From the NCBI GenBank assembly GCA_009929795.1, contig RZZR01000003.1, positions 3,747 through 67,746 of the forward strand: DNA of 64,000 nucleotides, given 5' to 3'. The notes beneath the pieces are model-generated. The model did not search any database and was not told the origin of the DNA. It worked only from the letters and a program-made list of their open reading frames with translations. This stretch comes from Deltaproteobacteria bacterium. Its GTDB lineage: Bacteria > Desulfobacterota > Desulfovibrionia > Desulfovibrionales > Desulfomicrobiaceae. This document shows positions 33,012 through 50,586 of this stretch, piece by piece. A program made the translations under genes and the position numbers. Within the stretch, counting starts at the first letter, position 1, and the number at the start of each line of letters is the position of its first letter.

Positions 33012-33027
33012 TGCAATCAAGGGGCCA
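33012..33027 (-). promoter_or_regulatory. Sigma-54 (-24/-12) promoter candidate for the flagellin gene
   Basis: The minus strand reads TGGCCCCTTGATTGCA, with GG and GC at exactly the consensus spacing of TGGCAC-N5-TTGCW. It lies 31 nt upstream of the ATG and is followed by AAGGAGG. Confidence 0.55.
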
Positions 33028-33141: not shown

Positions 33142-33169
33142 TAAAGTTTCAAGTGCTTTCGGCCGATTA
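33142..33169 (+). promoter_or_regulatory. Sigma-28 (FliA) promoter candidate for flaG
   Basis: TAAAGTTT-N12-GCCGATTA against the consensus TAAAGTTT-N11-GCCGATAA. It lies about 30 nt upstream of the flaG ATG. Confidence 0.6.
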
Positions 33170-33679: not shown

Positions 33680-35392
33680 TTATCTCTTGAGTTGTATGAG
33701 AATGGACAGCATCTGGTCCGTGGTGGTAATGGTTTTGCTGTTGGCCTCGAACCCCTTCTGTGTCGTGATCATGTTCACGAACTCCGTGGCCAGATCGACG
33801 TTGGACTGCTCAAGGGAGTTGGAAGCGATGCTCCCCTTGCCGGCCGTTCCAGCCAAACCAGTCAACGGCGGTCCGGAAGACCGGGTTTCCGAGAACAGGT
33901 TGTTTCCTTCCCGGTACAATGCGTACTGATTGTTGAAATCTGCCAGGGTCAAGGCGTAGAGTTCCAAGACTTGACCGTTGGAATACCTACCAACGAGCAC
34001 CCCGTCCCGGTCCACGGAAACGCTCTGCAAAAATCCCGCACCATACCCGTCCTGAGACTGGTACAGGGTGGTTGATCCCGTACTATACGTTGTGCTCGAC
34101 AGGGCGCTGATTTCCGGATCTCTTACGGTCATCAAATTGTCCGGGTCAGTTCCATATGTCGCAGGATCACCGCCTGTGGCACCCGAGTTGCTCGTCCATC
34201 CAGGGCCAATGGGATTAACGGGATCTTCTTCTAAGTTCTTGTTGCGCAATCCAAAATTGATTTCAATATTCTTGGGATCTGCAGGAGGATTTGCGGTGGC
34301 GCCTCCCGGGTAGGAAGTCGAGCTGGCATTTGCGGCTCCAGTGAAGTTGGCCGTGCAGATGGGGTAACCGTTCTGGGAAAAATTGGCAGGAGTCCACTCA
34401 GCCAAATCACTTGGGTCGGCGGGAAAAGTATACGGACCGCCATCCGGACCGTCCGCATTAATCGTGAAACCGGTCATGCCCTCGATCTCGCCGGCCGTGT
34501 TGAAGGTCAGGGTCCCGATCATCAACACACCGCGCATCCTCTCGTTATCTCCCCCTGCGTCTATAACGAATTCCCGATGATCTTCGTTAGGCGGAACCGT
34601 GACCATGTACTCCACATACTTCTTGCCTCCGGCCGCATCGATAACGTCCTCGTGGTTGACCGGATCGAAATACACGGTAAGATTGTGCGAAGTTCCGTTC
34701 TCGTCATATACCTTGATCGTGCTTTGGTAGGCATATTGAGCGTCGCCTAATGGCGGGTCCACAGTAGCGTCCCAATTGCTATACAAGGCGAAGAACGGGT
34801 CCGTTTCGCTGGTCGACTTGTCTTCCGCCCTGGAATCGACGTTCACAATCATGCTGACGTTCGTGGTCGCCTGAGGCGGAGACTGAAAATTTTCCAATCG
34901 GATGTCGGTTGGTACACCGATGGTCTTGACCCCGACCGTGGCCGAACTGGTCGACGCCGTCGTGGCCGCAGCGGAGATGTTTTCCCGCTGCACTTCCCAG
35001 CCCTGAAGCACGTAGCCATTGGGATCGACCAGATAGCCATCCTTGTCGAACCGAAAATTCCCGGCCCGAGTGTAATAATTCGTCTCATACCCCTTGGGGG
35101 AGACCATGAAGAATCCCTTGCCACCGATGGCCAAATCCGTGGCCTCGGTGGTGGTTTCCAGGGAGCCCTGGGCGAAATCGGCCATGACCGTGCCGACCAT
35201 GACGCCCCGCCCTACCTGTCCGCCCCCTGCCGCCGTGGTGATGGACTGACTCAAGGCGTCCATGAAATGCATCCTAGAACCCTTGAAGCCTAGGGTGCTG
35301 ACGTTGGCGATGTTGTTACCGATGACCGACATGGCCTCGCCATGGGCCTTGAGTCCGGTGGTGCCCGAGTAAAGAGCTGCTGACAAACCCAT
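33680..35392 (-). CDS. flgE: Flagellar hook protein FlgE
   Basis: N-terminus GLKAHGEAMSVIGNNIANVSTLGFKGSR and C-terminus LEQSNVDLATEFVNMITTQKGFEANSKTITTTDQML. Confidence 0.9.
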   Translation of the reverse strand: MGLSAALYSGTTGLKAHGEAMSVIGNNIANVSTLGFKGSRMHFMDALSQSITTAAGGGQVGRGVMVGTVMADFAQGSLETTTEATDLAIGGKGFFMVSPKGYETNYYTRAGNFRFDKDGYLVDPNGYVLQGWEVQRENISAAATTASTSSATVGVKTIGVPTDIRLENFQSPPQATTNVSMIVNVDSRAEDKSTSETDPFFALYSNWDATVDPPLGDAQYAYQSTIKVYDENGTSHNLTVYFDPVNHEDVIDAAGGKKYVEYMVTVPPNEDHREFVIDAGGDNERMRGVLMIGTLTFNTAGEIEGMTGFTINADGPDGGPYTFPADPSDLAEWTPANFSQNGYPICTANFTGAANASSTSYPGGATANPPADPKNIEINFGLRNKNLEEDPVNPIGPGWTSNSGATGGDPATYGTDPDNLMTVRDPEISALSSTTYSTGSTTLYQSQDGYGAGFLQSVSVDRDGVLVGRYSNGQVLELYALTLADFNNQYALYREGNNLFSETRSSGPPLTGLAGTAGKGSIASNSLEQSNVDLATEFVNMITTQKGFEANSKTITTTDQMLSILIQLKR

Positions 35393-35403
35393 AACGTACC
35401 CCC

Positions 35404-36102
35404 TTATACTTCGGATTCTTGGGCCTGCTGGCCCGAATCCACCACTTGAGTAACCTGCATGAAGTCGAGATACCGCCCGTCCTGCAATCGAAGATAGATC
35501 TGACCGCCCACATTCTCCACTCCGGCCACCACCCCGGCGACCTCGGAATTGACCAGGACGGGCTGCCCGTTGACTCCTTCAGCCGCGATATAAACGTAGT
35601 ACACACCGTCCGGGGCTGAGCCACCCATGTAGTTGCTGCCGTCCCAGGTGAACTCGTAGGATCCTGGCTGCTTGGACATGGCGTTGGCCGAATAGATGAT
35701 GTTTCCGTCAGCGTCGTAAACGTTGATGTACATCTTGGCCGCCACGTCGTCGAAGGAGTAATAGATCGGGCCAGCCTTGCCGTCGACCTTGCTGACCTGA
35801 TTACCTTCGGCGGTCACGGTCTTGCCGATGAAGCTCACCGCTCCGAGCATTTCCTGCCTGCTTGAATTTTCCTGAAGGCCGTCGATGCCCTTGGCGATCT
35901 GGGTCAACTGTTCGAGGCTGGAAAACTGGGCCAGTTGGGCCGTGAATTCCTTGTCGTCCATGGGATTCAGGGGATCCTGGTGCCGAAGCTGGGTGACCAG
36001 AAGCTGGAGAAAGGCCTCCTTGCCCAGTTCTGACCGGTCTCCGGTCTTCTTCTGGTCAAGGGCCTGTTCCTGCTCGTAAGTCCCGATGACGTTCGTGATC
36101 AT
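35404..36102 (-). CDS. flgD: Flagellar hook assembly/capping protein FlgD
   Basis: FLQLLVTQLRHQDPLNPMDDKEFTAQLAQFSSLEQ, plus a C-terminal FLgD Ig-like region. Confidence 0.9.
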   Translation of the reverse strand: MITNVIGTYEQEQALDQKKTGDRSELGKEAFLQLLVTQLRHQDPLNPMDDKEFTAQLAQFSSLEQLTQIAKGIDGLQENSSRQEMLGAVSFIGKTVTAEGNQVSKVDGKAGPIYYSFDDVAAKMYINVYDADGNIIYSANAMSKQPGSYEFTWDGSNYMGGSAPDGVYYVYIAAEGVNGQPVLVNSEVAGVVAGVENVGGQIYLRLQDGRYLDFMQVTQVVDSGQQAQESEV

Positions 36103-36114
36103 AATTTCATAACC

Positions 36115-38397
36115 TCACGCAAAGATGTCCAACCCATCGGAGGAAAAACTTTCCGCCATGCCTGGACTTTGCATCTCCCGGACCACATCCTGGCCGCCTC
36201 TCTGAAAGAGTCCCTGCCAACGCATCTTCCGGGCCTGCCTGGCCACCTCCTCCTGCAGTTCATTGTGGCCCTGGGCGCCCGTCCATTCTCCGGCAGAATC
36301 GTGATGATTGGCCTCGGATTGAACGTCCAGCCGCGAAACCCTGAGCCCCTGTTGCTCCAGATTCTGACGCAGGGCCTGCATCTGATCGCTCAAGGCCGTG
36401 GCCGTATCGGTGTTCGAGGTGTGCATGACCGCCTGAATCTCCTTGCCCTTGACCTGAAGAACCACCCGAATGGTTCCCAGGTCCTCGGGCTGCAATCGAA
36501 GCACGAGCTGTCTCTTGCCCTGGCCCAGATCCCTGAAGACACCCTTCTCCAATTGAGCCAGAATCTCGTTCGAACTCGGCTTGGAAGCTGACTGAGCCAT
36601 GGATCTGGTCTTCTGCCCGGCCTCTGTTCCGGCATCAGCCTTGACGTCCGCCATGGTCTGCGTGATTTGACCGCTCAGCTCTCCAGTCTTGGCAGCCGCT
36701 CGGAAAAAACTGCCTGCGGCCCTGTCGTTCGAAGCCGCCTCGCCGTGACTGTCCTTGGCCTTGGCGTCCTGTCGAAACCCGAACTGATCGGCACCCGGAC
36801 GTTGTCCTTCAGAAAATTTTCCTGCGGCCGTCACCCGATTCGACAGACCTTCCCGCAACTCGGTGTCGGCCTTGACGGCACTGCTGAAACGTGTGGTATC
36901 TTTGCCAATGGCCTCAGTACCAACTGTTTCGACATTGCGCTCTCCACCTGCCACGGCATCGTTCCTGGCCGAATTTGTGCGGGTATTCCGAATTTGATCT
37001 GCGGCAGTTCCATCCTTAAGTGTCCGTGTTCGGATGGTGTCCACAAAGTGAGCGTCCTCTTTTCCTTCTTCCGAATTCATGCCCTCGCCTTTGAAGCCGC
37101 CTTGCCTTCTCTCTTGCCCATTGAAAAGTTGGTTTTTCAAGGAAGACCGATCCATTTGAATCTCGATGGCCTTGTCGGCATCTGCCGACTCCTGACGATT
37201 CATGCTCATTGATCCGACTTCCGCCGAGGCCCCTTTGCTCATTCCTTTCAAATCTTTGCCCACAACTTGCCGGAATTTAGATCGGGCACCGTCGTTTCGG
37301 CTATCCCCAAGCAATCTTTGATTGTCCCTGTTTCCGACACGACTCTCATCAATTTGGACATGCTCACCTTGACGTGCCAACAGAGACAAAGCCTTCTTGG
37401 CCTCTGGACCAACTTGGCCCACCGAGGTCAAATCGACTCTCGTTTCTTTCGAAAGAGAAACCCAGCCGAGGACCAGACTCGCTTGCTTTTGAGCAGACAA
37501 CGCCCCGAAGCCTTCCTGTCGCCAGGGAGGAACCGATTCGGAACCGGCCTTGGCTTGTCCCGATGTCTGTATGGCCCGCTTCATTCGCTCAACGAGTCCG
37601 TGGACCTCAGTATTTCCTCCTGCCAAGCCCTTCAAAAAAGACATGAGGGCCTGCCACTCCTCCAGCCGGATACTCGTTGTTTCTTTGTCACGATCCTCCG
37701 GCAAGAGGGGCTCAGCACGCCCATCGGCGATCTGTTCGAAAGTATCTCTCGAATCGAACTCATTTCTTTCCTGCCCAGCCGCGTCCTCGAGAGAAGTTCG
37801 CTCCGCTTCTCCCGACAAGCCTTCGGCAACATGCCCGACATCACCCTCGGACAGCGGATCATTCTGGCCCTGATCGTCGTCGGGATAGCCGCCGGAGTAT
37901 TGAGGACTCTCGTCGGCCCGGGCTTCCACCCCGCCGCTCGCGGCATCAGGCCCATACCCGTCGTCACGAGATCGGCCGTGATTGTCTGAGTCGTCCCCGA
38001 CTGTTTCACGGCCCCGGGCCGCTTCGGTCGTATCCGTCGACCAATCCGAAGATAACTGTTCATGCGCGTCCGGTTCATGCTGCGCCGAGGTTGGGGAATA
38101 CTCGATCACCATTTCTTGCGGAGTTCCTTCCCACCATGAACAATCGGAAACTTTGCCGGCATCCGAATAATCGGTCCATGGTTCGGAAACCGACCGACTG
38201 TCGCTCGGCTGAGAGATAAGGTCGAACGACTCCTTGCCGGTCTCGAACAGGGGTTGCCCACCTTGGCTATCGAACAGAAACCGGCCAAAAAACGACTCGA
38301 AAAGCTCATTGGCGCTTTCCGGAAGGGATGAAGACGTTCCCGGGCTGACATTGGAGTTTGACTCGGTGCCGGACGAAAAAAGGGGAAAAAACTGCAT
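36115..38397 (-). CDS. fliK: Flagellar hook-length control protein FliK (long, acidic, low-complexity N-terminal part)
   Basis: C-terminal Flg_hook-type domain LRLQPEDLGTIRVVLQVKGKEIQAVMHTSNTDTATALSDQMQALRQNLEQQGL. Located upstream of flgD-flgE. Confidence 0.75.
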   Translation of the reverse strand: MQFFPLFSSGTESNSNVSPGTSSSLPESANELFESFFGRFLFDSQGGQPLFETGKESFDLISQPSDSRSVSEPWTDYSDAGKVSDCSWWEGTPQEMVIEYSPTSAQHEPDAHEQLSSDWSTDTTEAARGRETVGDDSDNHGRSRDDGYGPDAASGGVEARADESPQYSGGYPDDDQGQNDPLSEGDVGHVAEGLSGEAERTSLEDAAGQERNEFDSRDTFEQIADGRAEPLLPEDRDKETTSIRLEEWQALMSFLKGLAGGNTEVHGLVERMKRAIQTSGQAKAGSESVPPWRQEGFGALSAQKQASLVLGWVSLSKETRVDLTSVGQVGPEAKKALSLLARQGEHVQIDESRVGNRDNQRLLGDSRNDGARSKFRQVVGKDLKGMSKGASAEVGSMSMNRQESADADKAIEIQMDRSSLKNQLFNGQERRQGGFKGEGMNSEEGKEDAHFVDTIRTRTLKDGTAADQIRNTRTNSARNDAVAGGERNVETVGTEAIGKDTTRFSSAVKADTELREGLSNRVTAAGKFSEGQRPGADQFGFRQDAKAKDSHGEAASNDRAAGSFFRAAAKTGELSGQITQTMADVKADAGTEAGQKTRSMAQSASKPSSNEILAQLEKGVFRDLGQGKRQLVLRLQPEDLGTIRVVLQVKGKEIQAVMHTSNTDTATALSDQMQALRQNLEQQGLRVSRLDVQSEANHHDSAGEWTGAQGHNELQEEVARQARKMRWQGLFQRGGQDVVREMQSPGMAESFSSDGLDIFA

Positions 38398-38459: not shown

Positions 38460-39848
38460 TCAGAGGTCAAAGGGAAGTGCGTCGATCAGGAAAAGGCAGG
38501 TCTTCAGGGCTTCCCGACCATGGTCTCCGTTATCGAGCACATGCTGGACATAGCTGGTCAAAGGCCGGATTCCGGGGGGGAACGAACGCCAGAAAGAAAG
38601 GGGGCCAAAAGATAATGATGATTTAGCCTGACGACCAAGGACCAAGGCGAGACGGACTCGGGACCGGGCCAGGGCCAGGGCCAAATCGGGAAATGTTTGC
38701 CGCAGGAGGAGCCATTTGGCCTTCGCTTCCTGGCCAGAGCCGGGTCCGAAAACCGACCAGAAAAATGCCTTCCAGAAAGTACTCACGCACTCCCTGGCCT
38801 CCGGTCGAGCCTTTCTCCCGACCGAAGCCAAATCGTAGAGCCCGTCCGCATCCCGTCGCACAGACCAGACCCGGAGGGTCGAAACCTCCATTCTGACGAT
38901 TTCCTTTCTGAGAACGCGGCTGGCCAAGGACGATATCTTGGTTGCCGTGACCGCGTCGGCGCAAAAAACCCTATTTTGCCGACACGACCAGCACCCTGTA
39001 CAACTCGATCCGGACCTGACGATCCAGCTTCCGGGCCGAAATGGTCCGGTGTCCCAGGGATACACTGGCCCTATAGACAAATTCAGAACCGGGAGGCCGG
39101 CCCATGAGGCCAGATGCATGGGACCAGTATCCGGGGCGATCAACAGGTTGAGGCTCGCGAAGACACGCATCAGTCCGGCCAAATCGGTCTGGCCGCAAAG
39201 GTTCATGACCTTGGCAGGCAGGGCACGACTGATGGCCCGCCCTACCGAACTCTCGACCTTTCCACCAAGCAGAACCGGGGCGTGCCCCTGGCTCAGAAGC
39301 CGCTGGGCGAGGGAAATCCAGAAATCCACCCCTGGAGTTTTGGCCGCAGTGCTCGCGCCTGGGAAAAGGCCGATTCTGGCCGGGATTCCGGTCCTGCACA
39401 CTGGCGTCGGCCAGACGTGACCCCGAACCAGATCCGGCACAAGATCCAATCCGTACAGCTCAGACCAGTGGAATCTGTTGTGGCGGCTGTTGTCCGTCAG
39501 GCTGGATCGGTACAGGTTCCAGTCGCCCCTGATGTACAGTCGTCCGTCCGGCGTCCGAAAAGGGCCGAAGAGCGCCTCAGCGCGAACTCCTCCAGCTAGG
39601 GCCGCTGCTTCCTCTCTGGAGGAAAGATTCAGACAAAACAGGAAGGTCTGGGTCTTCAGGGCCGGATCGGACGGCAAAACATGACGGACCTTCGGCCCGA
39701 TGCCCTGGAGGGCCATGGAAACAGGGGGCTGGGCCGCCACCCAGACCGGATGCCCGGGCCAGGCCCGAGCCAGCCAGTCGAACAGGGGGAAGGCCATGAC
39801 CATATCGCCCATCCGATGCATCTGTATGACGAGGATCGGCTTGGCCAC
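38460..39848 (-). CDS. Glycosyltransferase family 9 (heptosyltransferase-like) protein with extended C-terminal region
   Basis: GTG start. ILVIQMHRMGDMVMAFPLF...GLFPGAS...LLIAPDTGPMHLA pattern of GT9 enzymes. Confidence 0.6.
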   Translation of the reverse strand: MAKPILVIQMHRMGDMVMAFPLFDWLARAWPGHPVWVAAQPPVSMALQGIGPKVRHVLPSDPALKTQTFLFCLNLSSREEAAALAGGVRAEALFGPFRTPDGRLYIRGDWNLYRSSLTDNSRHNRFHWSELYGLDLVPDLVRGHVWPTPVCRTGIPARIGLFPGASTAAKTPGVDFWISLAQRLLSQGHAPVLLGGKVESSVGRAISRALPAKVMNLCGQTDLAGLMRVFASLNLLIAPDTGPMHLASWAGLPVLNLSIGPVYPWDTGPFRPGSWIVRSGSSCTGCWSCRQNRVFCADAVTATKISSLASRVLRKEIVRMEVSTLRVWSVRRDADGLYDLASVGRKARPEARECVSTFWKAFFWSVFGPGSGQEAKAKWLLLRQTFPDLALALARSRVRLALVLGRQAKSSLSFGPLSFWRSFPPGIRPLTSYVQHVLDNGDHGREALKTCLFLIDALPFDL

Positions 39849-39854
39849 GAAACC

Positions 39855-41552
39855 TCAAGCGTAGACCTCGGCCATGATCTTGGCGATCCTGGCCAGGCGG
39901 TGATCGTAGGTGTGTTCGGCCAGAACCCGAGTCCTGGCCGCGGCCGCCATGGTTCGGCGTTGCTCCGGCCTTGCCAGATAATGACGGACCAAATCCGGAA
40001 TCTCGTCCGGATGACTGAAACAGACCACCTCCCGGCCGGGCTCGAACAGGGTCTCTATCTGCTCTCTGGCGTCCGTCAGCAAAAAGCTCTCGCAGGCCGG
40101 AACATCGAAGACCCTCTGGTTGACGGCCCCTTTCATCTGCATGCTGGTGCAGTTAAAGTTGACGGCCACGGTTGGATACAGTCCTGGAAGATCCCGATAG
40201 TAGTTCATCTCCGCCTGCCATCGCCAGGAATGGTCCCCGGGCAGAAGTTTCCTCCACCCCCGGTCGCCGACAATCAGCGGCCTGAACTCCAAAAGTCGCT
40301 GCACGCACGCGAGGCGGTACGCGAGAGTGGCCTGCCAGGTCAGCATGGTCTCGAAGGCCAGTTGCCGCTCCAGTGTTCCGAGTTTTTGAAAATGGGCATA
40401 GAGTTCGGGATGGTTCTCTTCAAGAAAGACCCGGACCGACCGGTTCGAACTGGCCGCATATTCATCGGCCGTCTGTCGGTAGATCCGCAAAAGCTCACGT
40501 GGAAAACGTCCGGCTTTGAGCCTGGCTCCGACCTTGTAGACCATGGAATTTCCGACAAAGGCCGCGTCCCATCCCACCCCGGTTCGGACTGGAACAAAAC
40601 GGGTCACATCGGTTCCCAGGGGGAGATACTCGACCGAAGAGAAACCCAGGCTCCGCAATCCCTCGACATTGTCCCGGTCCCAGGTAAATACGGCCACCCA
40701 CTTCGAGACCAATCCCTGATAGAGCGACAAAATCAGTTCCGGATTGTCCACGAACCACGAAGCCAGGGGCAATTCCATCCGGGACAGAAGATCGGTCAGC
40801 ACCCCTTCGCGGTCCACGCCGAGATGGTTGACGGTCAGGACGAAATCCGGACGGAACTCAAGGACGGCCTGAAGAAGCCCCTCTATGAAAGCCGTGCATC
40901 CTTGCTCCTGGCTTTCCATCTGCAAAAGCCGGCAGGTGAATCCGCACCTCCGACAGGCCGATTCAAGTTCCCCGATGAGGAAATAGGAACTGGTCAGAAG
41001 CAGAATCCGTGGCAAGGCCGGGTTGGTGAACTTTTTGTATCTGAGCCTGTCCCAAATGTTGAACCGCGCGCTGGCCTTGAGATGTTCGAGGATTGGGCGA
41101 TAGTACTCCGGGTCGAGACGCAGATAGGCGGGCAGAATCACCGGGACCAACGGCAGGCCTCCGTTTCGAGTCTGCCATTGAGTCAGACGGTTCAGGGCTT
41201 CACGAACATCCCCGTCCGAGACCCAGAACAGGTTCGAATGCCTGGAGACGAGAGTGTCCAAACCGGTCAACCTGAGAACATCGAATTCCTTGTCCACCAG
41301 GGCCACAGGACCGGCCCAGCCTTCCAGAAAAAATTTCAGGCCATGGCCAAGGCCGCTTCCCAACACCACCGGCAAGCAGGGTTCTTTCCCCATCAGGGCT
41401 TCGAAGACGCGACGTTCGGACACTGGCCCGCCTCGACCGCACAGAGATACCTCCAGCCCGGCTTTGACGACAACCACGTCCAGTAGTTCCTCCCCGTCCA
41501 GAACAGGACGGGCTTTCGCCCGGGAGAGGAAACCGTTTCCTTGGGTCACCAT
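39855..41552 (-). CDS. CgeB-like glycosyltransferase (DUF3880 / Glyco_trans_1_2-type C-terminus)
   Basis: The C-terminal NQRVFDVPACESFLLTDAREQIETLFEPGREVVCF...RRTMAAAARTRVLAEHTYDHR resembles CgeB-family proteins. The ATG overlaps the motB stop (ATGGTGA). Confidence 0.55.
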   Translation of the reverse strand: MVTQGNGFLSRAKARPVLDGEELLDVVVVKAGLEVSLCGRGGPVSERRVFEALMGKEPCLPVVLGSGLGHGLKFFLEGWAGPVALVDKEFDVLRLTGLDTLVSRHSNLFWVSDGDVREALNRLTQWQTRNGGLPLVPVILPAYLRLDPEYYRPILEHLKASARFNIWDRLRYKKFTNPALPRILLLTSSYFLIGELESACRRCGFTCRLLQMESQEQGCTAFIEGLLQAVLEFRPDFVLTVNHLGVDREGVLTDLLSRMELPLASWFVDNPELILSLYQGLVSKWVAVFTWDRDNVEGLRSLGFSSVEYLPLGTDVTRFVPVRTGVGWDAAFVGNSMVYKVGARLKAGRFPRELLRIYRQTADEYAASSNRSVRVFLEENHPELYAHFQKLGTLERQLAFETMLTWQATLAYRLACVQRLLEFRPLIVGDRGWRKLLPGDHSWRWQAEMNYYRDLPGLYPTVAVNFNCTSMQMKGAVNQRVFDVPACESFLLTDAREQIETLFEPGREVVCFSHPDEIPDLVRHYLARPEQRRTMAAAARTRVLAEHTYDHRLARIAKIMAEVYA

Positions 41553-42298
41553 TTCTCGAACTGGGGCTGATGGTAGTAGAACTCCACCCGGCGGTTCATA
41601 TCCCGGTTGGTCTCAGAGACGTTCGGCACCAGAGGCCGTGTCCCGGCATAGCCGATGGCCTTGAGCCGCGAGGGGGAAATCCCCCCCTTGTCCACCAGAT
41701 ACCGAACCGCCGCCGCGGCCCGGGACGAGGACAATTCCCAATTAGAGGGGTAGACGCTCGACGCGATGTACTGGTCGTCCGTATGCCCTCTGACCACAAG
41801 ATCGAAATTGTGCTCCTTGAGAATGCCGATCACCGCATTCAAGACCAGAGATGCATTGGGTTCGAGGACGGCGGATTGGGGAGGAAACATCAGCCCGCTT
41901 TCGACCCGCATCAACACGCCTTGGTCGTCAGGAGAAATCTCTATGCCGTTCTTGATTTCCTGGTCGTTGCTGACCAGGGCCTTAATCTGGAGCGTTAGAT
42001 CCAGGATCGCCTTGCTCTCCCTGTCAAGGGCAACGTCCTGGCGTTCGTAAAGGGAAGGGGAAAAGGCCACGTGACTGGTCGGAGGTCGTTTGACCTGAAC
42101 ACCAAACGCATCCCGGACCGAACCCATCATGTCCTGGAACTTCTGAATGTCCATGTTCGCGAACGACAAAAGGAGAACGAAAAAGGTCAAGAGCAGAGAG
42201 ACCATGTCGGCGAAGGTGGCCATCCAGGGAGGCAGACCCTCTTCGCACATGCGATCTTCCTGTTTTTTGCAACGCACCTGCCCGGACCTGGCGGTCAT
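41546..42298 (-). CDS. motB: Flagellar motor stator protein MotB (OmpA-like C-terminus)
   Basis: PPWMATFADMVSLLLTFFVLLLSF plug/TM region. The C-terminal VRGHTDD...NWELSSSRAAAVRYL...NRRVEF is an OmpA-type peptidoglycan-binding motif. Confidence 0.85.
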   Translation of the reverse strand: MTARSGQVRCKKQEDRMCEEGLPPWMATFADMVSLLLTFFVLLLSFANMDIQKFQDMMGSVRDAFGVQVKRPPTSHVAFSPSLYERQDVALDRESKAILDLTLQIKALVSNDQEIKNGIEISPDDQGVLMRVESGLMFPPQSAVLEPNASLVLNAVIGILKEHNFDLVVRGHTDDQYIASSVYPSNWELSSSRAAAAVRYLVDKGGISPSRLKAIGYAGTRPLVPNVSETNRDMNRRVEFYYHQPQFEKW

Positions 42299-43050
42299 TC
42301 CGCACCTCCCCGAAGGGTGGGTGATAGGAAGGCCTCCAACTTCTCCTGCAAGATCCTCGGGTTGTCACCGTTCAGGATGGAGACCACCCCCTCGACCGTG
42401 ATCTCCATGTACAGGGCGTCCAGGGCCGAAAGTTGGCCCAGCTTATTGGCGATGGGCAAAAAGACAATGTTGGCCAGCAAGGCCCCGTACAAAGTCGTCA
42501 GCAGGGCCACGGCCATGGCCGGACCGATGGACGCCGGGTCGGAAAGATTCTGAAGCATATTCACCAGGCCGACCAGAGTCCCAATCATGCCGAAGGCCGG
42601 CGACATGGTCCCCATGCCCTTGAAGATACCCTGGCCCTGGTGGTGGCGCTGCTTCATGAAGTTGATCTCGGTCTCCATGACCGATCGGACCAGATGTTCC
42701 TCGGTGCCGTCAGCGACCATGAGCAGACCTTTCTTCAGAAAGGCGTCCTCCACCGGAGCCTTTTCCAGGGCCACCAGGCCATCTTTTCTGGCCACGTTGG
42801 CCAGATCGACGATCTGGCGGATGAGCCTCCGGGCGTCAGGGGCCTTACTCAGAAAGGCCTTGAGCATGACTTTGAAGCCCCCGAAAACAGCGATCATCGG
42901 ATACATGACAAAAGTCACGCTCACGGTCCCACCGATGACGATCAGAATGGACGGCACATCGACGTACGCCACGAGGCTTCCGTTGAAGAGGATGGCCGTG
43001 ACGACAAGGCCGAAACAGGCAACAATGCCGACAATAGTTCCTAAATCCAT
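42295..43050 (-). CDS. motA: Flagellar motor stator protein MotA
   Basis: Start at MDLGTIVGIVACFG with GGGAGG upstream. MotA/TolQ/ExbB channel motif PAFGMIGTLVGLVNML...LLTTLYGALLAN. The listed ORF to 43173 is over-extended. Confidence 0.85.
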   Translation of the reverse strand: MDLGTIVGIVACFGLVVTAILFNGSLVAYVDVPSILIVIGGTVSVTFVMYPMIAVFGGFKVMLKAFLSKAPDARRLIRQIVDLANVARKDGLVALEKAPVEDAFLKKGLLMVADGTEEHLVRSVMETEINFMKQRHHQGQGIFKGMGTMSPAFGMIGTLVGLVNMLQNLSDPASIGPAMAVALLTTLYGALLANIVFLPIANKLGQLSALDALYMEITVEGVVSILNGDNPRILQEKLEAFLSPTLRGGAE

Positions 43051-43096: not shown

Positions 43097-44212
43097 TCAT
43101 TTCTCCAGAGCCGGGGACAGCATGGCCACCTCGCCGTCCTGGAGCACAAACCTTTTGTCCCTGAGAAAATCATTAACCTTCATCTGCGAGCTTCCGATCT
43201 GGACAAACACTCCGGGCCTGATCTCCCCGGGAATCAACAACTTGGCCCTAGGATTGAAACCGGCCTCCAGATCCTCCCAGGTACCGGCGCGTTTTCTCTT
43301 CAAGATGTCGAGCTTCCGCTCCAGTTTGGCCCCCTCATCCAGGCATCCCTCCTTGTGGGCCGCTCCTTTTTCGGCCTGCCGGGAGCAGAGATCCAACCTC
43401 GCCTCGAGGCGCTCGATCTTAGTGTCCAATCCTTCGACTCGGGCAAGCAGACCAGCGTCGTAACCCAGAACCACCTTGGTCATGGTGTTCATGCCGCCTC
43501 CAAGTTGCTCCCCGACGTAGACCGCATGGCTGGAGTGGACTTCGCCGCCCACAAGCCGCTTCCGGACGGTGATAAACCGGCCCGCGTAGAGGTTGCAATG
43601 CATACTCGCCCCGTCGACGATTATGGACTCCCCGGCCTTGAGAATCGCATTCTCGGCATACGAGCACCGGATGCTCCTGACCGCGTTTACCATACCCTTC
43701 TTGGCCCCCTTGATCCCGCCTTCGATCAGAACCGACCCTCCGGCCTGAAGCGAGGCCGCCTCGACATTGCCCTGGACCCTGATGTCCTGGGCCTGGCATT
43801 CAAAACCCGAGGCCACGTCACCGTGGACGATGGCGTCCGAAACAAAATAGACGTTTCCGGTCCTGGAGTTCACCCCCTTGCGCAGGTTCAGGACCCGTTT
43901 CACGTGAATTTTTTCGTCCAGATAGAACACATACCCGTTGGCCGTGGAGACGAGCTGGTCGGGGTTGGCCGGGTTGGGCCTGCAATTGTGGCCCGCCGGA
44001 AAAATCTTGTCATCGAAAACGAATTTCGGATCCAAACCCGCAGGAAGGGCATCGTCCGGCACCGGGATCCATTCGGCCAGCACCTGACCGATGATGGAGT
44101 TCTGCACGTATCCGAGATTGAAATGATCGACCCGTCCATGATCGTCCGTTTTGGGCTTCAGACGCTGATAATCGAAATCCGGGTCGAAATGATGCTTGAG
44201 AAAAAAACGCAT
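43097..44212 (-). CDS. FapA (DUF342) family flagellar-assembly-associated protein
   Basis: Start at MRFFLKHHF, 8 nt after the STAS stop. Repetitive beta-helix-like segments (VHGDVASGFECQAQDIRVQGNVEAASLQAGGSVLIEGGIKG...) and a C-terminal coiled coil are typical of FapA/DUF342. Confidence 0.6.
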   Translation of the reverse strand: MRFFLKHHFDPDFDYQRLKPKTDDHGRVDHFNLGYVQNSIIGQVLAEWIPVPDDALPAGLDPKFVFDDKIFPAGHNCRPNPANPDQLVSTANGYVFYLDEKIHVKRVLNLRKGVNSRTGNVYFVSDAIVHGDVASGFECQAQDIRVQGNVEAASLQAGGSVLIEGGIKGAKKGMVNAVRSIRCSYAENAILKAGESIIVDGASMHCNLYAGRFITVRKRLVGGEVHSSHAVYVGEQLGGGMNTMTKVVLGYDAGLLARVEGLDTKIERLEARLDLCSRQAEKGAAHKEGCLDEGAKLERKLDILKRKRAGTWEDLEAGFNPRAKLLIPGEIRPGVFVQIGSSQMKVNDFLRDKRFVLQDGEVAMLSPALEK

Positions 44213-44220
44213 CGACAGGC

Positions 44221-44565
44221 TCAGTCGGGAAGGGAGGCCAAGAGATCTTCCTCGTCTTGAACAATGGTCAAAAACGAGGTCAACTTGACCAGATGCAAAG
44301 TCTTGGTCACCGATTGAGAGGGTTTGTAAATAAAGAAGCTTTTGCCCCGCTGCTTGATCTGATTGTTCAAGGCCACGAGCAGGCCAATACCAGAGCTGTC
44401 CAGAAAACCGACGTCGGTCAACTGAAAGACAAGGGCCTGCCAGGAGGGATCTGCCAGAATTTCCTCCATGCGGGCCTTCAGCCCGGCCGTGGTGTCCAGG
44501 ACCAGTTCGCCGTCCAGCCTGATCCAAGCCACTCCATCCCTGTATTCGACGGAAAGATCTTCCAT
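44221..44565 (-). CDS. STAS-domain anti-sigma-factor antagonist (SpoIIAA/RsbV-like)
   Basis: 114 aa. ...VFQLTDVGFLDSSGIGLLVAL... has the conserved phosphorylatable Ser in the DSSG context. Confidence 0.8.
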   Translation of the reverse strand: MEDLSVEYRDGVAWIRLDGELVLDTTAGLKARMEEILADPSWQALVFQLTDVGFLDSSGIGLLVALNNQIKQRGKSFFIYKPSQSVTKTLHLVKLTSFLTIVQDEEDLLASLPD

Positions 44566-44572
44566 GTCCAGC

Positions 44573-46165
44573 CTACCTCGTCCGTTTGAGCATGAGCAGA
44601 GAATTGCGGTCGCCCCGCCGCTGCATTTTCACCTCGTCCATTAGGGCACGGATGATGAACATCCCCCGACCGTGGATCTGTCGGCGACTCGGGGTCGTCA
44701 CCGCCTCCTTGCGCTCAAAATCTCGCCCCCAATCCTCGATCTCCATAGATACCCCCCATGAAGGACGGAATTCGACCCGCAGCATGACCCGGCCCGGAAG
44801 CCCATTGTATCCATGAACGGCGATATTTGCCAATGCTTCGGTCATGGCCAGTTCGCAGTCGAAAAGAATCGATTCGTCTCCAATGTGCTCCCGGAGGAAG
44901 GTCAGTACCGTTCTCGTTATTGGCCTGACCATACCGATGGATACGGGCTCGTCAATGGTCATGACCTGGTTCTCGGCGACCGTATTTCTGATCGATGCGG
45001 GCTGGGCGCATATCTCCCCGCCGGAAGACGGGTTTCGGGCCTCGATCCACAGAGCGGTCAGATCGTCCCTATAGGTAGCCGGGGAAATCAGAGCGGCCTC
45101 CATCTCGATCTTCAGCCCCTCGAGCCGAAACGGCCTTTCCCGGGTCAGGCGCACGGCCAGATCCCAAAATCGCTCGAACCCGAACAGCTCACTCTGGCCC
45201 ATATCCCATTCATACAGGCCGTCGGTGAACAAAAATAGACCGGCCCCCGGCATGAACTCGCACTCCTGGACCTCGAACTCCAGGGGAAAAAAACCCAGTG
45301 GTGGATACTGGGGGTCCAGCCGCTCGTGCCCCCCTCCGGGACGAGCCAGAATGCCGGGACAATGTCCCGCGTTGACAAAAGACAGACGATGGGCATTGAA
45401 ATCGATCTCCGCTGCGAAAAATGTCACGAAGTCGGCTTCATCGCCCAGGGTCTCGGTCATCTGGGTGTTGATCAAGGCCATGGTCCGAGCCAGGGAGGGA
45501 AGATGTTGCCGAGTTCCCTGGACGAGAGCCCTGATCATGGACATGACAAAGGCAGCCCGAACTCCGTGGCCGGACACGTCGGCCATCACCACCCGGACCG
45601 TGTCCGGTCCGACCGGGAAAAAATCGTAGTAGTCGCCGCTGGCCTGCCCAGATGGGTGGTACATGGCCTGGATCAAGGCTCCGGGGCAATCCAGATATCC
45701 CCGGGGGAGAAGTTTGGCCTGCAGCTCGGCCGCAGCGGCCACGTCCAAAGCAATCCGCTCGTAGGCTTGACGAAGCTGGCGCATGAGCTGGACATGGCGG
45801 AGGGCCGAACCGGCCCGAGCCATGAGGACCTCCATGTGAAAGGGCTTGGTCAAAAAATCATTGGCGCCGAGGTTGAGGGCCTCGGCCATGTCCTGGGGCG
45901 TGTCATTGGCGGTCAAGACGATGACGTACACGTCCTGGTCGTTGGCCTGCTCCCGGATATAGCGAAGGCATTCCTTGCCGCCCATGCCCGGCATATTCAG
46001 ATCCAGGAAGATGCAATCGGGCCTCGACGCCAGATAGGCTTCAAGGCCAGGCTCTCCATCCTCGGCCACCTCAACCTGGAAACGTTTCCCCAGGGCTCCG
46101 CGCAGCAGTTCGCGGATAACCGGCGAATCGTCGATGACCAGACAGGACATGAGAATATCGTTCAT
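44573..46165 (-). CDS. Fusion protein: response-regulator receiver + PP2C (SpoIIE-type) phosphatase + RsbW/SpoIIAB-like Ser kinase (HATPase)
   Basis: REC: CLVIDDSPVIRELL...CIFLDLNMPGMGG...VIVLTAN...FLTKP. PP2C: SGDYYDFF...VVMADVSGHGVRAAFVMS...FLFTDGLYE. Kinase: TEALANIAVHGY (N-box), IEDWGRDF and HGRGMFIIRALMDEV (G-boxes). Start taken at MNDILM (46165). Confidence 0.75.
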   Translation of the reverse strand: MNDILMSCLVIDDSPVIRELLRGALGKRFQVEVAEDGEPGLEAYLASRPDCIFLDLNMPGMGGKECLRYIREQANDQDVYVIVLTANDTPQDMAEALNLGANDFLTKPFHMEVLMARAGSALRHVQLMRQLRQAYERIALDVAAAAELQAKLLPRGYLDCPGALIQAMYHPSGQASGDYYDFFPVGPDTVRVVMADVSGHGVRAAFVMSMIRALVQGTRQHLPSLARTMALINTQMTETLGDEADFVTFFAAEIDFNAHRLSFVNAGHCPGILARPGGGHERLDPQYPPLGFFPLEFEVQECEFMPGAGLFLFTDGLYEWDMGQSELFGFERFWDLAVRLTRERPFRLEGLKIEMEAALISPATYRDDLTALWIEARNPSSGGEICAQPASIRNTVAENQVMTIDEPVSIGMVRPITRTVLTFLREHIGDESILFDCELAMTEALANIAVHGYNGLPGRVMLRVEFRPSWGVSMEIEDWGRDFERKEAVTTPSRRQIHGRGMFIIRALMDEVKMQRRGDRNSLLMLKRTR

Positions 46166-46190: not shown

Positions 46191-46667
46191 TCAGCGGGCA
46201 CTCTCAAGTTCTTCACTGTCCAGCACAATCGTCACCGGCCCCCAATTGCAGAGTTCAAGATCCATGTCTGCTCCGAACACGCCCATCCGGACTTTGCCGA
46301 AGGAGTGTCCCATCTCCTGAACAAAGGCCTCGTAGGCCAATTTAGCATCAGGACTTGGCAGGGATCCGGAATAGGAGGGCCGACGTCCCTTCCGGCAATC
46401 GGCGTACAGCGTGAACTGGGATACCACCAGGACTTCCCCGCCGTGATCGACTAGGGACAGATTCATCACCCCTTTTTCGTCGGGAAAGATTCTCAAATTC
46501 AGGATCTTGGAAATCATGCGGGTTCTTCGTCCGCCGGCCTCCAGGGAATCTGGCGAATCTTTGGGGCCGAAAGCCGCCAGGAGCAGGAGTCCGGTTCCGA
46601 TTTCGGCCACGGTCTCGCATCCGACACAAACATTAGCCCGCCGAACCCGTTGCAAAGCAATTCTCAT
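46191..46667 (-). CDS. dtd: D-aminoacyl-tRNA deacylase
   Basis: MRIALQRV...VVSQFTLYADCRKGRRPS...GADMDLELCNWGPVTIVLDS. Confidence 0.85.
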   Translation of the reverse strand: MRIALQRVRRANVCVGCETVAEIGTGLLLLAAFGPKDSPDSLEAGGRRTRMISKILNLRIFPDEKGVMNLSLVDHGGEVLVVSQFTLYADCRKGRRPSYSGSLPSPDAKLAYEAFVQEMGHSFGKVRMGVFGADMDLELCNWGPVTIVLDSEELESAR

Positions 46668-47089
46668 GCACAATCATCCGGAACCATTGAGGATACTCCG
46701 TTCCGACTTCGAAAGGTGGCCGTGGACCCGGCCTTCTCCGACACCGAAACGTATTCCAGGCGGACCGCCAGCCCCTGGACTTTGGAAGCCAAGGCTTCGT
46801 AGATAAAACGGGCCAGAGTCTCGGAAGACGGATTGATCTCGGTGAACTCCGGCAATTCGTTGAGGTGGCGATGGTCCAGCAGGGACAATACCTCCCCAAG
46901 CATGGCCTTGAGAGTCTTGAAGTCCAGAAGGATGCCTGTCTTGGGGTTCAGCCTCGTCCCGCTGACCGCCACCTCGACCCCGAAGTTGTGGCCATGCAGG
47001 GCCTCACATTTCCCTTCGTAGTGTCGAAGCTGATGCGACGCGCTGAACTCGCCAGCAACGGTCAAGGTCCATTCGCCGTTGGTCGTCAT
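46664..47089 (-). CDS. queD: 6-carboxy-5,6,7,8-tetrahydropterin synthase QueD (PTPS family)
   Basis: FSASHQL...KCEALHGHNFGVEV...LDFKTLK...LDHRHLNE. Confidence 0.8.
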   Translation of the reverse strand: MTTNGEWTLTVAGEFSASHQLRHYEGKCEALHGHNFGVEVAVSGTRLNPKTGILLDFKTLKAMLGEVLSLLDHRHLNELPEFTEINPSSETLARFIYEALASKVQGLAVRLEYVSVSEKAGSTATFRSRNGVSSMVPDDCA

Positions 47090-50000
47090 TGAGGCCTCCC
47101 GCTCAATCGCTCATATTCCCGCCAAAAGGACGGCTCCGGCCCAACGCACCACCGCCCTCCCAGTTGGAGCCGGCAGTGAAAATCATTGTCCCGCACCGAA
47201 ATCCGGACCGGGCAGGAACCGGGGTGGGCGGCCAGCAAGCCAGCAAGACCGTCGAGGCAGGCGTCCAGGTCCTCTGACGAGAACTCTAAATCCACAGGCT
47301 CGGTTCCGGAGCTTATGACATCCGTCAAGGAAACAAAGGACTCGGCCAAAACCTTGGTTCTGGCGGACGTTCCCTCCTCGGCCTGGTCCTGATCCCGCTT
47401 CAGGCTTCCCTCGATGACCAGAGGAACGTCCTGCTCGAGCCATTGTCTGCAGGTCGCGAAGACCGACGGAAAGATAACCGCCTCCGCAGCTCCGGTCATA
47501 TCCTCGATCTGGGCGAAGGCCATCCTTTCGCCTTTTTTGCTGACAATCTTCTTCAATCCGGTGACAACAACCGCCACCCTGACCTTGGTCCCGTTGTCGA
47601 GGTCCAGGCAGTCGGCCAGGCGCTTCAACCCGAGGCGGTCAATGTCCGTGCGGTAAGGAGAAAGCGGATGGCTAAAGAGGAAAAATCCGAAACTCTCCTT
47701 CTCCAGGCGCAGACGCTCCTCCTCCGGATATTCGTCGGGTTCGCTGTCAAGGTCCATGCCCAAACCCGTCATGGAACAGGTCTTGGTCTCGGGCATGAAG
47801 GTCATCAGCGACAACTGGCCCATGGACTTCTGCTTGGCCGTCTTCTGAGCCGCAGACTGGGCCCGGTCCAGACCGGCCATCAACATCGCCCGTGCGCACC
47901 CCAGACAGTCCATGCTTCCGGATTTGATCAAACATTCGAGGACTTTTTTGTTCACCCTCTTCAAATCGAGTCTCTGGCAAAGGTCCAACAAACTCTGGTA
48001 GGGGCCCCCAGCCTCACGCTCGGCCACCAAAAGCTCCGCCGCTCCCTGACCTACTCCCTTGATACCGGCCAGCCCAAAACGGATCTTTCCGTCCTCAACC
48101 GTAAACTGGTATCGACTCCAATTCACGTCCGGAGGCAGGATCTCGATGCCGGCATCCCGACAGGCATTGATGTGGACCATGACCTTGTTCGAATCGTTGA
48201 CCTCCGAGGTGACGATGGCAGCCATGAACTCCACCGGATAATGGGCCTTCAGATAGGCCGTCTGGTAAGAAATCAGTGCATAGGCGGCACTATGGGACTT
48301 GTTGAATCCGTAACCGGCGAACTTCCGGACCAAGTCGAAGATGTAGTCCGCAGCCTCGTCGGGTATGCCGTTGGCCCTGGCTCCCTGAAGAAACCGAGAT
48401 CGCTGCTGGGCCATGACCGCCTCGTCCTTCTTGCCCATGGCCCGCCTGAGGATATCCGCCTCCCCCAAAGAATAATTGGCCATGTCCGAAGCTATACGCA
48501 TGACCTGTTCCTGATAGAGAATTACTCCGTAGGTGTCCTTGAGGATCGGATCCAGGACTTTTTCAAGGCAGGGATACGGATACTCGACCCTGGTCCGGCC
48601 ATGCTTGCGGTCCACGAAATCCTTGACCATGCCACTTTCTAGCGGACCTGGGCGGTAGAGGGCCAGCAGGGCGACGACATCCTCGAAACAGGTCGGGCCC
48701 AGATCCTTGAGAACGGCCCGCATCCCCGAGCTTTCGAGCTGAAAGACCCCCTCGCTCTCCCCTCGGCCAAGCATTTCGTAGGTCTTGGCATCGTCCAGGG
48801 GAATGGTCTCCAACACCGGGGGAGCCACTCCCCGCCCGGCAATCAGCTTTAAAGTCTCATCGATCACGGTCAGGGTTTTGAGACCGAGAAAGTCGAACTT
48901 GATCAGCCCGGACTTTTCAACCTTCTTCATGTCAAACTGGGTGATCAGTTCGTCGTTCTTGCCCTTGAAGAGCGGAACGTACTCCATCATGGGCTTTCTC
49001 GAGATGACAATACCCGCTGCGTGGGTCGAAGGATGCCTGGCCAACCCTTCCAACCTGCGGGAAACATCCAGAAGTTCGGCGATTGACTCGTCCTCGTCGG
49101 CCAGCTTCTGAAGCTCCGGCTCCTGCTCCAGGGCCTTTTTGAGGGTCATCTTCAAATCCGTGGGAACGAGCTTGGCCACCCTGTCCACAGTGGGCAAAGG
49201 AATGTCGAGAGCTCTGCCGACGTCCCGGAGCACCCCACGGGCCTTCATGGTCCCCACAGCGATGATCTGGGCCACGTGATCGAAGCCGTATTTTTCCGTA
49301 ACATAACGGATGACCTCGTCCCGTCGATTGTAGCAAAAATCCACGTCGATGTCCGGGAGGCTCTCCCGCTCGACATTCAGAAACCGCTCGAAGATGAGTC
49401 CATAGCGGATCGGGTCGAGATCGGTGATCCGCAGGGCGTAGGACACGAGGCTTCCGGCCGCGGACCCCCGACCAGGGCCTACCGGGATTGATTTGGACTT
49501 GGCCCAGTTGATGAAGTCCTGAACAATCAGAAAATAGGCCGGGAACCCCTTTTCACAGATGATGTCCAGCTCGAAGTTCAAGCGTTTCCAATAAATTTCC
49601 TCGTCGATCTCATAGGGCAGTGCCTTGATCCTGGCCTTGAGGCCTTGGTTGACCAAATCCCGGAATTCCTCCTCAAGGCTCCGCCCCTCGGGCACCTGAT
49701 AGACCGGAAAATGGTGCACGTTCAGTTCCAATTCCACATTGCAGGCCTGAACAATCCGCTCCACGTTCTCAAGCGCCTGGGGACAGAAGGAGAACTCGGC
49801 CTCCATTCGCTCCGGCGACTTGTAGAAGAACTGGTCGGAACCGAACCTAAGACGTTTTTTCGTTTCAACGGTCTTGCCGGTACCGATGCAAAGAAGCACG
49901 TCGTGGGCCTCAGCGTCTTCCTCATTCAGATAATGGCAGTCGTTGGTGGCCACCAGCGGCAAGCCTGTCTGGGCGGCCAGCTTGACCAAACCCTCATTGG

Positions 50001-50586
50001 CCTCCCGTTGATCGTCCATGCCGTTTTCCATGAGTTCCAGATAGAAACGGCCCGGAAAAATGGCTGCATACTCCTTGGCGGTCTTCAAGGCGGCGTCCAT
50101 GCCTTCGTGCCTGTACCGATACGGGACTTCCCCTTGGAGACATGCCGAACAGGCGATGAGCCCTGCCCCCCATTGCCTCAGGGCGGCCTTGTCCACCCGG
50201 GGTTTGTAGTAGAATCCTCGGGTATACCCGGTCGACACCAGACGGACGAGATTGTGATACCCTTCCAGGTCCTGGGCCAGAAGCAGGAGATGAAACCGTT
50301 GCTGATCCTTGTCTTCCATGGACCGGGGGGCCACATAGACCTCGGATCCGATGATCGGCTTCAATCCGAAGGAACGGGCCTTGAGATAAAAATCCAAGGC
50401 TCCAAACATGCTCCCGTGATCGCTGATGGACACGGCCGAAAAACCGAAATCCACCGCCTTGGCGCAGAGATCCTGGATTCGGATTGCTCCGTCCAGAAAG
50501 CTGTACTCGGTATGGCAATGAAGATGGGTGAAATCTGACACGATGATGGAGTGGTGTTGAGTGTCACTCGAAGGCAAAACCTTCAA
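47086..50586 (-). CDS. dnaE: DNA polymerase III alpha subunit
   Basis: PHP domain FTHLHCHTEYSFLDGAIRI, polymerase core GPGRGSAAGSLVSYALRITDLDP, and an OB fold near the C-terminus. The listed start is a TTG that overlaps the upstream ORF. A GTG at 50541 (VSDFTHLH) is an alternative. Confidence 0.9.
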   Translation of the reverse strand: MKVLPSSDTQHHSIIVSDFTHLHCHTEYSFLDGAIRIQDLCAKAVDFGFSAVSISDHGSMFGALDFYLKARSFGLKPIIGSEVYVAPRSMEDKDQQRFHLLLLAQDLEGYHNLVRLVSTGYTRGFYYKPRVDKAALRQWGAGLIACSACLQGEVPYRYRHEGMDAALKTAKEYAAIFPGRFYLELMENGMDDQREANEGLVKLAAQTGLPLVATNDCHYLNEEDAEAHDVLLCIGTGKTVETKKRLRFGSDQFFYKSPERMEAEFSFCPQALENVERIVQACNVELELNVHHFPVYQVPEGRSLEEEFRDLVNQGLKARIKALPYEIDEEIYWKRLNFELDIICEKGFPAYFLIVQDFINWAKSKSIPVGPGRGSAAGSLVSYALRITDLDPIRYGLIFERFLNVERESLPDIDVDFCYNRRDEVIRYVTEKYGFDHVAQIIAVGTMKARGVLRDVGRALDIPLPTVDRVAKLVPTDLKMTLKKALEQEPELQKLADEDESIAELLDVSRRLEGLARHPSTHAAGIVISRKPMMEYVPLFKGKNDELITQFDMKKVEKSGLIKFDFLGLKTLTVIDETLKLIAGRGVAPPVLETIPLDDAKTYEMLGRGESEGVFQLESSGMRAVLKDLGPTCFEDVVALLALYRPGPLESGMVKDFVDRKHGRTRVEYPYPCLEKVLDPILKDTYGVILYQEQVMRIASDMANYSLGEADILRRAMGKKDEAVMAQQRSRFLQGARANGIPDEAADYIFDLVRKFAGYGFNKSHSAAYALISYQTAYLKAHYPVEFMAAIVTSEVNDSNKVMVHINACRDAGIEILPPDVNWSRYQFTVEDGKIRFGLAGIKGVGQGAAELLVAEREAGGPYQSLLDLCQRLDLKRVNKKVLECLIKSGSMDCLGCARAMLMAGLDRAQSAAQKTAKQKSMGQLSLMTFMPETKTCSMTGLGMDLDSEPDEYPEEERLRLEKESFGFFLFSHPLSPYRTDIDRLGLKRLADCLDLDNGTKVRVAVVVTGLKKIVSKKGERMAFAQIEDMTGAAEAVIFPSVFATCRQWLEQDVPLVIEGSLKRDQDQAEEGTSARTKVLAESFVSLTDVISSGTEPVDLEFSSEDLDACLDGLAGLLAAHPGSCPVRISVRDNDFHCRLQLGGRWCVGPEPSFWREYERLSGRPQ

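Follow-up and report, generated by a model that had tools for sequence, protein, structure and literature searches.

We analysed a window of 64,000 nucleotides (nt) from a Deltaproteobacteria bacterium of the Desulfomicrobiaceae (order Desulfovibrionales; GenBank assembly GCA_009929795.1, contig RZZR01000003.1, positions 3,747 to 67,746), in which a gene encoding a three-domain response regulator (44573..46165, minus strand; all positions are those of the window) is followed by a gene encoding a single-domain STAS protein (44221..44565, minus strand). The locus probably encodes a partner-switching pair of the HsbR/CrsR type, whose output is most likely HsbA-like and directed at FlgM and the sigma factor FliA (sigma-28). 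The roles of the kinase, the phosphatase, the phospho-serine and the receiver gate are supported by conserved residues, and the choice of target follows the analogy to HsbA. With both its domain architecture and its flagellar linkage already known from other bacteria, the module formed by the two genes belongs to a known kind of switch, of which it is a member not studied before.

The regulator comprises 530 amino acids (aa), starts with ATG at position 46165 and is free of internal stops. Its matches to Response_reg (1.9e-27, residues 10-118), SpoIIE (2e-36, residues 188-376) and HATPase_c_2 (9e-20, residues 414-527) follow one another in this order from the N-terminus, all above the curated Pfam cut-offs. 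An earlier note on this DNA, made from the sequence alone, had read a receiver, a SpoIIE/PP2C phosphatase and an RsbW/SpoIIAB-type kinase in one polypeptide; the profiles bear this out, including the kinase-like C-terminus, which also aligns to the structures of SpoIIAB (1th8) and RsbW (6m36). For the part comprising the receiver (REC) and the PP2C domain, the closest solved chain is a REC-PP2C protein of Pseudomonas aeruginosa (3eq2/3f7a, 9.5e-28). An alignment with 14 homologues shows that the receiver domain (about residues 9-117; 45815..46141, minus strand) keeps the acidic pocket D12/D13, the phospho-acceptor D55, T85 and K107. Likewise kept are the metal-binding aspartates D178, D181, D196, D315, D367 and D368 of the SpoIIE/PP2C domain (about residues 187-375; 45041..45607, minus strand), which carries the motifs SGDYYD, ADVSGHG, TDG and RDD, and the N-box E443/N447, D478xG480 and G499-R500-G501 of the Ser-kinase/anti-sigma-like domain (about residues 413-526; 44588..44929, minus strand). 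In the DxGxG box of the kinase, the second glycine is replaced by aspartate. Judged by this alignment, the catalytic residues of receiver, phosphatase and kinase are intact.

The nearest database relatives of the fusion are only about 40% identical to it and all belong to the Desulfovibrionales; many share the three domains, and the others are REC-PP2C proteins of 376-385 aa. An origin of the fusion by frameshift or assembly error was rejected, since the three Pfam domains recur together within single chains of dozens of database proteins and intact fused reading frames occupy the same locus in other genomes. Comparison of loci from species genomes showed that some lineages have the kinase as part of the fusion and others have it as a separate gene at the same locus. 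A tree of the REC-PP2C part puts fused forms at four or more positions, including one that is sister to a split form, but the tree is poorly resolved at depth and the number of fusion events cannot be counted from it; the window protein groups weakly with Desulfomicrobiaceae. The scattered distribution of the fused forms and the sister position of a split form therefore suggest that fusion and fission are labile. Two variants were seen among the homologues. Three fused Thermodesulfomicrobium-type proteins (P0025, P0045 and P0054) carry pseudo-receivers, in which VVMGERLG replaces ILLDMNMP and the phospho-acceptor aspartate is lost; unlike these, the window fusion retains D55. At the orthologous locus of a Desulfonatronum metagenome-assembled genome (MAG; L021:10001-11563), REC-PP2C and STAS genes are about 100 nt apart with no kinase gene between them and are followed by FapA-motAB and two glycosyltransferase genes (GT-GT9); the kinase must be encoded elsewhere or have been lost.

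The presumptive substrate of the fusion is the STAS protein (114 aa; STAS 1.9e-16), which also scores as an anti-sigma-factor antagonist (TIGR00377, 62.5 bits versus a cut-off of 53.45). Its gapless alignment to SpoIIAA (1auz) places S57, within a DSSG motif, on the SpoIIAA phospho-serine S58, and S57 is thus the predicted phospho-acceptor. The STAS gene is preceded by a GAGG ribosome-binding site and begins 7 nt after the stop codon of the fusion gene, to which it is translationally coupled. The earlier note had correctly placed it next to the fusion gene, but the 8 nt that it gave for this gap separate the STAS gene from the following gene, which encodes a FapA protein.

Considering what has been reported for the Hsb system of Pseudomonas, we propose a hypothetical multistep mechanism. 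In that system, HptB phosphorylates the receiver of HsbR, which turns from a kinase into a phosphatase; unphosphorylated HsbA binds the anti-sigma-28 factor FlgM, and the phosphorylated form associates with HsbR and with the cyclase HsbD; HsbA also acts via HsbD and cyclic di-GMP (PMC5085249). By analogy with HsbR, (i) the kinase domain would phosphorylate S57 of the STAS protein as long as the receiver is unphosphorylated; (ii) D55 would be phosphorylated by a histidine kinase or a histidine phosphotransfer (Hpt) protein encoded elsewhere, neither having a gene next to the pair; (iii) phosphorylated D55 would move the balance towards the phosphatase, yielding unphosphorylated STAS protein; (iv) the phosphorylation state of the STAS protein would select its binding partner; and (v) the target would be, as for HsbA, the FlgM/FliA pair encoded elsewhere in the genome and hence sigma-28-dependent flagellar gene expression. 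The FapA-motAB genes would form a separate, tightly coupled accessory stator associated with FapA. The logic of a kinase and a phosphatase for one STAS protein, gated by a receiver, had been recognised correctly in the earlier note.

The sigma factors of the genome are consistent with such a target. No Sigma70_r2 match, and hence no sigma-70-family gene, was found on the contig of the window, in agreement with the earlier statement that no sigma gene lies nearby. Six sigma-70-family genes on other contigs encode two RpoD, RpoH, FliA and two extracytoplasmic function (ECF) sigma factors. FliA (228 bits) and FlgM (50 bits) both score above their cut-offs and are encoded away from the window, FlgM on another contig; RpoS was not found in the genome. 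We favour an HsbA-type target because the genome encodes both FlgM and FliA and lacks RpoS, and FlgM/FliA is the most likely partner of the STAS protein by this comparison. Within the window, a near-consensus sigma-28 box (TAAAG-N15-GCCGATTA, 33142-33169, plus strand) lies upstream of the divergent flaG gene, which indicates that the FliA regulon operates in this locus. The earlier suggestion that the output is the motor or its assembly rather than transcription is not supported over an output through FlgM and FliA, which are encoded elsewhere in the genome, as for HsbA.

The module belongs to a syntenic block that extends across the order, dnaE-queD-dtd-[REC-PP2C(-kinase)]-STAS-(FapA-motA-motB)-GT-GT9-fliK-flgD-flgE. 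In the window, the upstream flank dnaE-queD-dtd (46191..50586, minus strand) was identified by profile matches and is kept in the loci of relatives; the hook genes fliK-flgD-flgE (33680..38397, minus strand) were assigned from a Flg_hook match (1.6e-17) and the list of open reading frames. The block was found in D. ferrophilus, Fundidesulfovibrio, Desulfomicrobiaceae, Halodesulfovibrio and Nitratidesulfovibrio, with exactly the arrangement of the window in D. ferrophilus and without FapA-motAB in Fundidesulfovibrio. In most families, flagellar genes follow the module within 10 kb, on the same strand and with minimal gaps. The output is taken to be motility-related because the module is fixed in a Desulfovibrionales block together with hook genes.

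To quantify these associations, the coordinates of the module, FapA, the window-type MotA (an orthogroup defined at >=57% identity) and FlgE were compared across 151 genomes sampled evenly from the order. Orthologues of the module were present in 54 genomes, FapA orthologues in 63 and the window-type MotA orthogroup in 36. The module adjoins FapA in 20 genomes from several families, always in the same order, and in nine genomes module and flgE share a contig at a distance of 5-10 kb. However, FapA is missing altogether from 27 of the 54 genomes that carry the module, 36 of the 63 FapA-bearing genomes lack the module, and 16 genomes have FapA-motAB without the module alongside. The linkage to flagellar genes that the earlier note anticipated for other genomes thus holds for the conserved block with its hook genes in several families, but not for FapA-motAB as a regular neighbour of the module.

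In the window, the short-form FapA/DUF342 protein (43097..44212, minus strand; 371 aa) is identified by the PF03961 beta-solenoid profile (7.8e-44; 150.7 bits versus a gathering cut-off of 31). Its gene is followed after 46 nt by motA (42295..43050, minus strand; MotA_ExbB 1.6e-30), which overlaps motB (41546..42298, minus strand; MotB_plug 7.7e-18, OmpA 7.8e-17), so that the gene succession described in the earlier note, STAS, FapA and motA-motB, was recovered by profile matches. From the fusion gene to motB, all genes are closely packed on the minus strand. A MotA_ExbB channel protein and an adjacent MotB with plug and OmpA-like domains are the components of a MotAB/PomAB stator, and the best NCBIfam models (PomA/MotP for MotA, MotB/MotS for MotB) are of the sodium type for MotA, with scores below the equivalog cut-offs; the match of MotA to the PomA model (3e-85) likewise stays below the cut-off of that model. 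The genome encodes three MotAB sets, the others at C314:20107-22393 and C166:7274-8735, and the window MotA represents a distinct orthogroup with 57-74% identity across the order. In 35 of the 36 genomes with this orthogroup, MotA adjoins a short-form FapA; the lone exception is a contig break. Module and FapA each often occur without the other, but this MotA is almost always found next to FapA; FapA-motAB is therefore a tight unit, and the partner switch is its lineage-specific, facultative neighbour. In the lineage of the window, the unit, apparently a conserved cassette for an accessory stator, sits between the STAS gene and the glycosyltransferase genes. The genome has a second FapA paralogue, of the long form, in an open frame of 521 aa on a short contig (C121:1057-2607).

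Outside the order, the association was examined at FapA loci of other orders of the phylum, where the FapA-motAB trio occurred in six of 40 loci and a STAS gene stood beside FapA in one. At 60 FapA loci of a Firmicutes-type phylum, no STAS, PP2C, kinase, MotA or MotB gene was found nearby, a soft zero, given that the sensitivity of the scan had no positive control. STAS-FapA adjacency as a general trait was rejected on these counts. The single positive locus (L150:6503-9403, G240:C21), which belongs to another family, is a free-standing STAS-FapA-motA-motB operon with no PP2C/phosphatase or kinase gene within 8 kb; it is flanked by smpB and a gene for an MscS-type mechanosensitive channel.

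Several observations weigh against an HsbA-like output on FlgM/FliA. The target is chosen by analogy, and the gene order differs, with the regulator preceding the STAS gene in the window and hsbA-hsbR-hptB in Pseudomonas. No Hpt gene is present in the gene string, unlike in Pseudomonas with its adjacent hptB; 11 Hpt domains are encoded on other contigs of the genome, and an adjacent hptB is a feature of Pseudomonas that does not define the wider CrsR/HsbR class. Scans for sigma-70, sigma-54 and sigma-28 promoters and for terminators between 38 and 51.5 kb revealed nothing above chance for the module. The 8-nt coupling of STAS and FapA points to a link with FapA or the stator, as do the free-standing operon of L150 and one family (f5) in which the module and FapA-motAB are kept together with flgE elsewhere, 2.6 Mb away in a single-contig assembly (G013). 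In Desulfovermiculus, the kinase is encoded by a separate gene and no flagellar gene lies near the module. Finally, conservation of the dnaE-queD-dtd flank equals or exceeds that of the flagellar flank, and position alone is therefore no proof of a flagellar role.

Some of these observations would fit a post-translational control of the motor, which we consider unlikely. According to this scenario, the STAS protein would bind FapA, or the MotAB linked to it, depending on the state of S57, and thereby recruit, release or activate an accessory stator without any sigma factor; it would be a phospho-switchable adaptor by which a two-component signal sets S57 and FapA engages or releases a PomAB-like MotAB at the motor, a role to which we assign the same low probability. 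The translational or near-translational coupling of STAS, FapA and motAB argues for this view, as do the invariant order in the 20 genomes with adjacent module and FapA, the arrangement in family f5 and the self-contained operon of L150. Further support comes from the FapA of Helicobacter pylori, which co-purifies with MotB and is found near the stators (bioRxiv 10.64898/2026.10.23.761471), and from SypA, which sets a precedent for STAS proteins whose output is not a sigma factor (PMC10120452). On the other hand, module and FapA are frequently found apart in the survey, a STAS gene stood beside FapA at one of the 40 and none of the 60 FapA loci sampled outside the order, the STAS protein of L150 is just 28% identical to that of the window, and H. 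pylori FapA gave no two-hybrid signal with MotA or FliG (bioRxiv 10.64898/2026.10.23.761471). If the adaptor reading were true, it would mean a sigma-independent, post-translational choice among the three stator sets of the genome.

It is similarly improbable that the module is a general, non-flagellar switch that owes its position to an old synteny with dnaE-queD-dtd, with an output such as an HsbD-like diguanylate cyclase, the adjacent glycosyltransferases or stress physiology. Besides the conservation of the upstream flank, this possibility could draw on Desulfovermiculus and some other loci, where unrelated genes follow the module, on several module-bearing genomes without a FlgE match at 1e-60 and two without a MotA match at 1e-40, and on the additional action of HsbA through HsbD and cyclic di-GMP. 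However, these absence thresholds are strict and do not establish non-motility, the flagellar genes stand close behind the module in most families, and the characterised relatives HsbR and HsbA affect motility.

A direct anti-sigma action, in which the kinase domain sequesters FliA and unphosphorylated STAS protein displaces it, is quite doubtful: although the kinase domains of CrsR and HsbR bind RpoS directly (PMC6482189), the fusion kinase resembles the anti-sigma factors SpoIIAB and RsbW, the setting is flagellar, and FliA scores as a relative of SigB/F/G and is the only SigB/SigF-like group-3 sigma factor besides RpoH, the only sigma factor shown to bind such three-domain regulators is the missing RpoS, FliA already has FlgM as its anti-sigma factor, and none of the loci examined pairs the module with a sigma gene. 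RpoS itself, the target in the CrsR system, is ruled out by its absence from the genome.

Downstream of motB, the gene string continues with two glycosyltransferase genes (38460..41552, minus strand; profile matches to DUF3880 and Glyco_trans_1_2, CgeB-like, and to GT9), fliK, flgD and flgE and then a flagellin gene. Both glycosyltransferase genes are translationally coupled to motB, which overlaps the first of them, and in most Desulfovibrionales loci they are retained behind the module and ahead of fliK; the pair may have a role in flagellar glycosylation. A sigma-54-like -24/-12 element (TGGCCC-N5-TTGCA, 33012-33027, minus strand) precedes the flagellin gene by about 30 nt. Elsewhere in the genome, two tandem genes about 1 kb apart (C380:13479-18387) encode full-length RpoD paralogues of 592 and 610 aa, and a second, stand-alone pair of a STAS protein and an RsbW-like kinase lies at the end of a 9-kb contig (C199:8234-9008), with no sigma gene visible there. 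Among the comparison loci, L009, from a record titled as an Acidobacteriota MAG, carries a module with flanks that are near-identical to the Desulfovibrionaceae MAG locus L011 and show Desulfovibrionales synteny; this contig is probably mis-binned.

In summary, our analysis adds sulfate reducers to the Gammaproteobacteria as hosts of receiver-gated kinase/phosphatase switches of the HsbR/CrsR class; in the sulfate reducers, the module is a stable element of the flagellar locus with a kinase repeatedly fused to or split from the phosphatase. Related genomes with or without the adjacent FapA-stator unit offer a clean comparative setting for the outputs of switches that lack a sigma factor. Possibly the more useful lead is the almost invariable pairing of the short-form FapA with its own MotAB orthogroup, which fits recent evidence for a location of FapA proteins at the stators. 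We found no literature on this module in Desulfovibrio.

The comparison with known systems places the module closest to HptB-HsbR-HsbA (P. aeruginosa PA3345-PA3347; P. putida PP_4362-4364). The combination of a REC-PP2C-kinase/anti-sigma protein and a STAS antagonist has been published for HsbR/HsbA in Pseudomonas and CrsR/CrsA in Shewanella, and homologues are said to be widespread in proteobacteria (PMC6482189). The window fusion has the same order of REC, PP2C and kinase and is likened to these regulators by this published architecture; it also shares the adjacent single-domain STAS protein with a conserved phospho-serine. In most Pseudomonas, this system is encoded within the flagellar cluster, immediately before fliK (PMC5085249; bioRxiv 10.1101/2021.08.29.457346), and in P. 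putida hsbAR-hptB is co-transcribed with fliK as the operon hsbAR-hptB-fliKLMNOPQR-flhB. As in the window, the Hsb system thus stands in a flagellar setting near fliK with no sigma gene in the operon. In contrast to Pseudomonas, FapA-motAB and the two glycosyltransferase genes are inserted between the switch and fliK, no HsbD-like cyclase is encoded nearby, and the host is a member of the Desulfovibrionales without RpoS. CrsR-CrsA of Shewanella oneidensis is built from the same three-domain regulator and STAS antagonist, with a kinase domain that doubles as an anti-sigma factor, but its target RpoS is missing here and crsRA is linked to a che cluster rather than to motAB or fliK.

SypE-SypA of Vibrio fischeri likewise combines a kinase and a phosphatase for one STAS protein in a single receiver-bearing polypeptide, and its output is no known sigma factor. 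However, SypE carries the kinase at the N-terminus, the receiver in the centre and the PP2C domain at the C-terminus (PMC10120452), and it belongs to a polysaccharide (syp) locus rather than a flagellar one. The earlier note had described the fusion as a permuted SypE; the difference in order is real, yet the arrangement is not novel, as it is that of HsbR and CrsR (PMC6482189). The same three folds and the same phospho-serine logic also underlie RsbU/RsbW/RsbV and SpoIIE/SpoIIAB/SpoIIAA of Bacillus and RssB/RssC of Pseudomonas (PDB 3eq2), and a separate kinase gene, as in the Rsb system, is found in many Desulfovibrionales relatives. In the window, by comparison, the parts are fused, the receiver serves as input and the operon contains no cognate sigma gene. 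The FapA proteins studied in Vibrio vulnificus, Borrelia and H. pylori share the PF03961 beta-solenoid with that of the window and are tied to the flagellar pole and motor. Their known partners are EIIA-Glc and HubP in Vibrio and PilM in Helicobacter, and a STAS partner is unreported; here, the short-form FapA comes coupled with a motAB pair of its own, and FapA and stator as a unit fit the co-purification of H. pylori FapA with MotB and its position near the stators (bioRxiv 10.64898/2026.10.23.761471).

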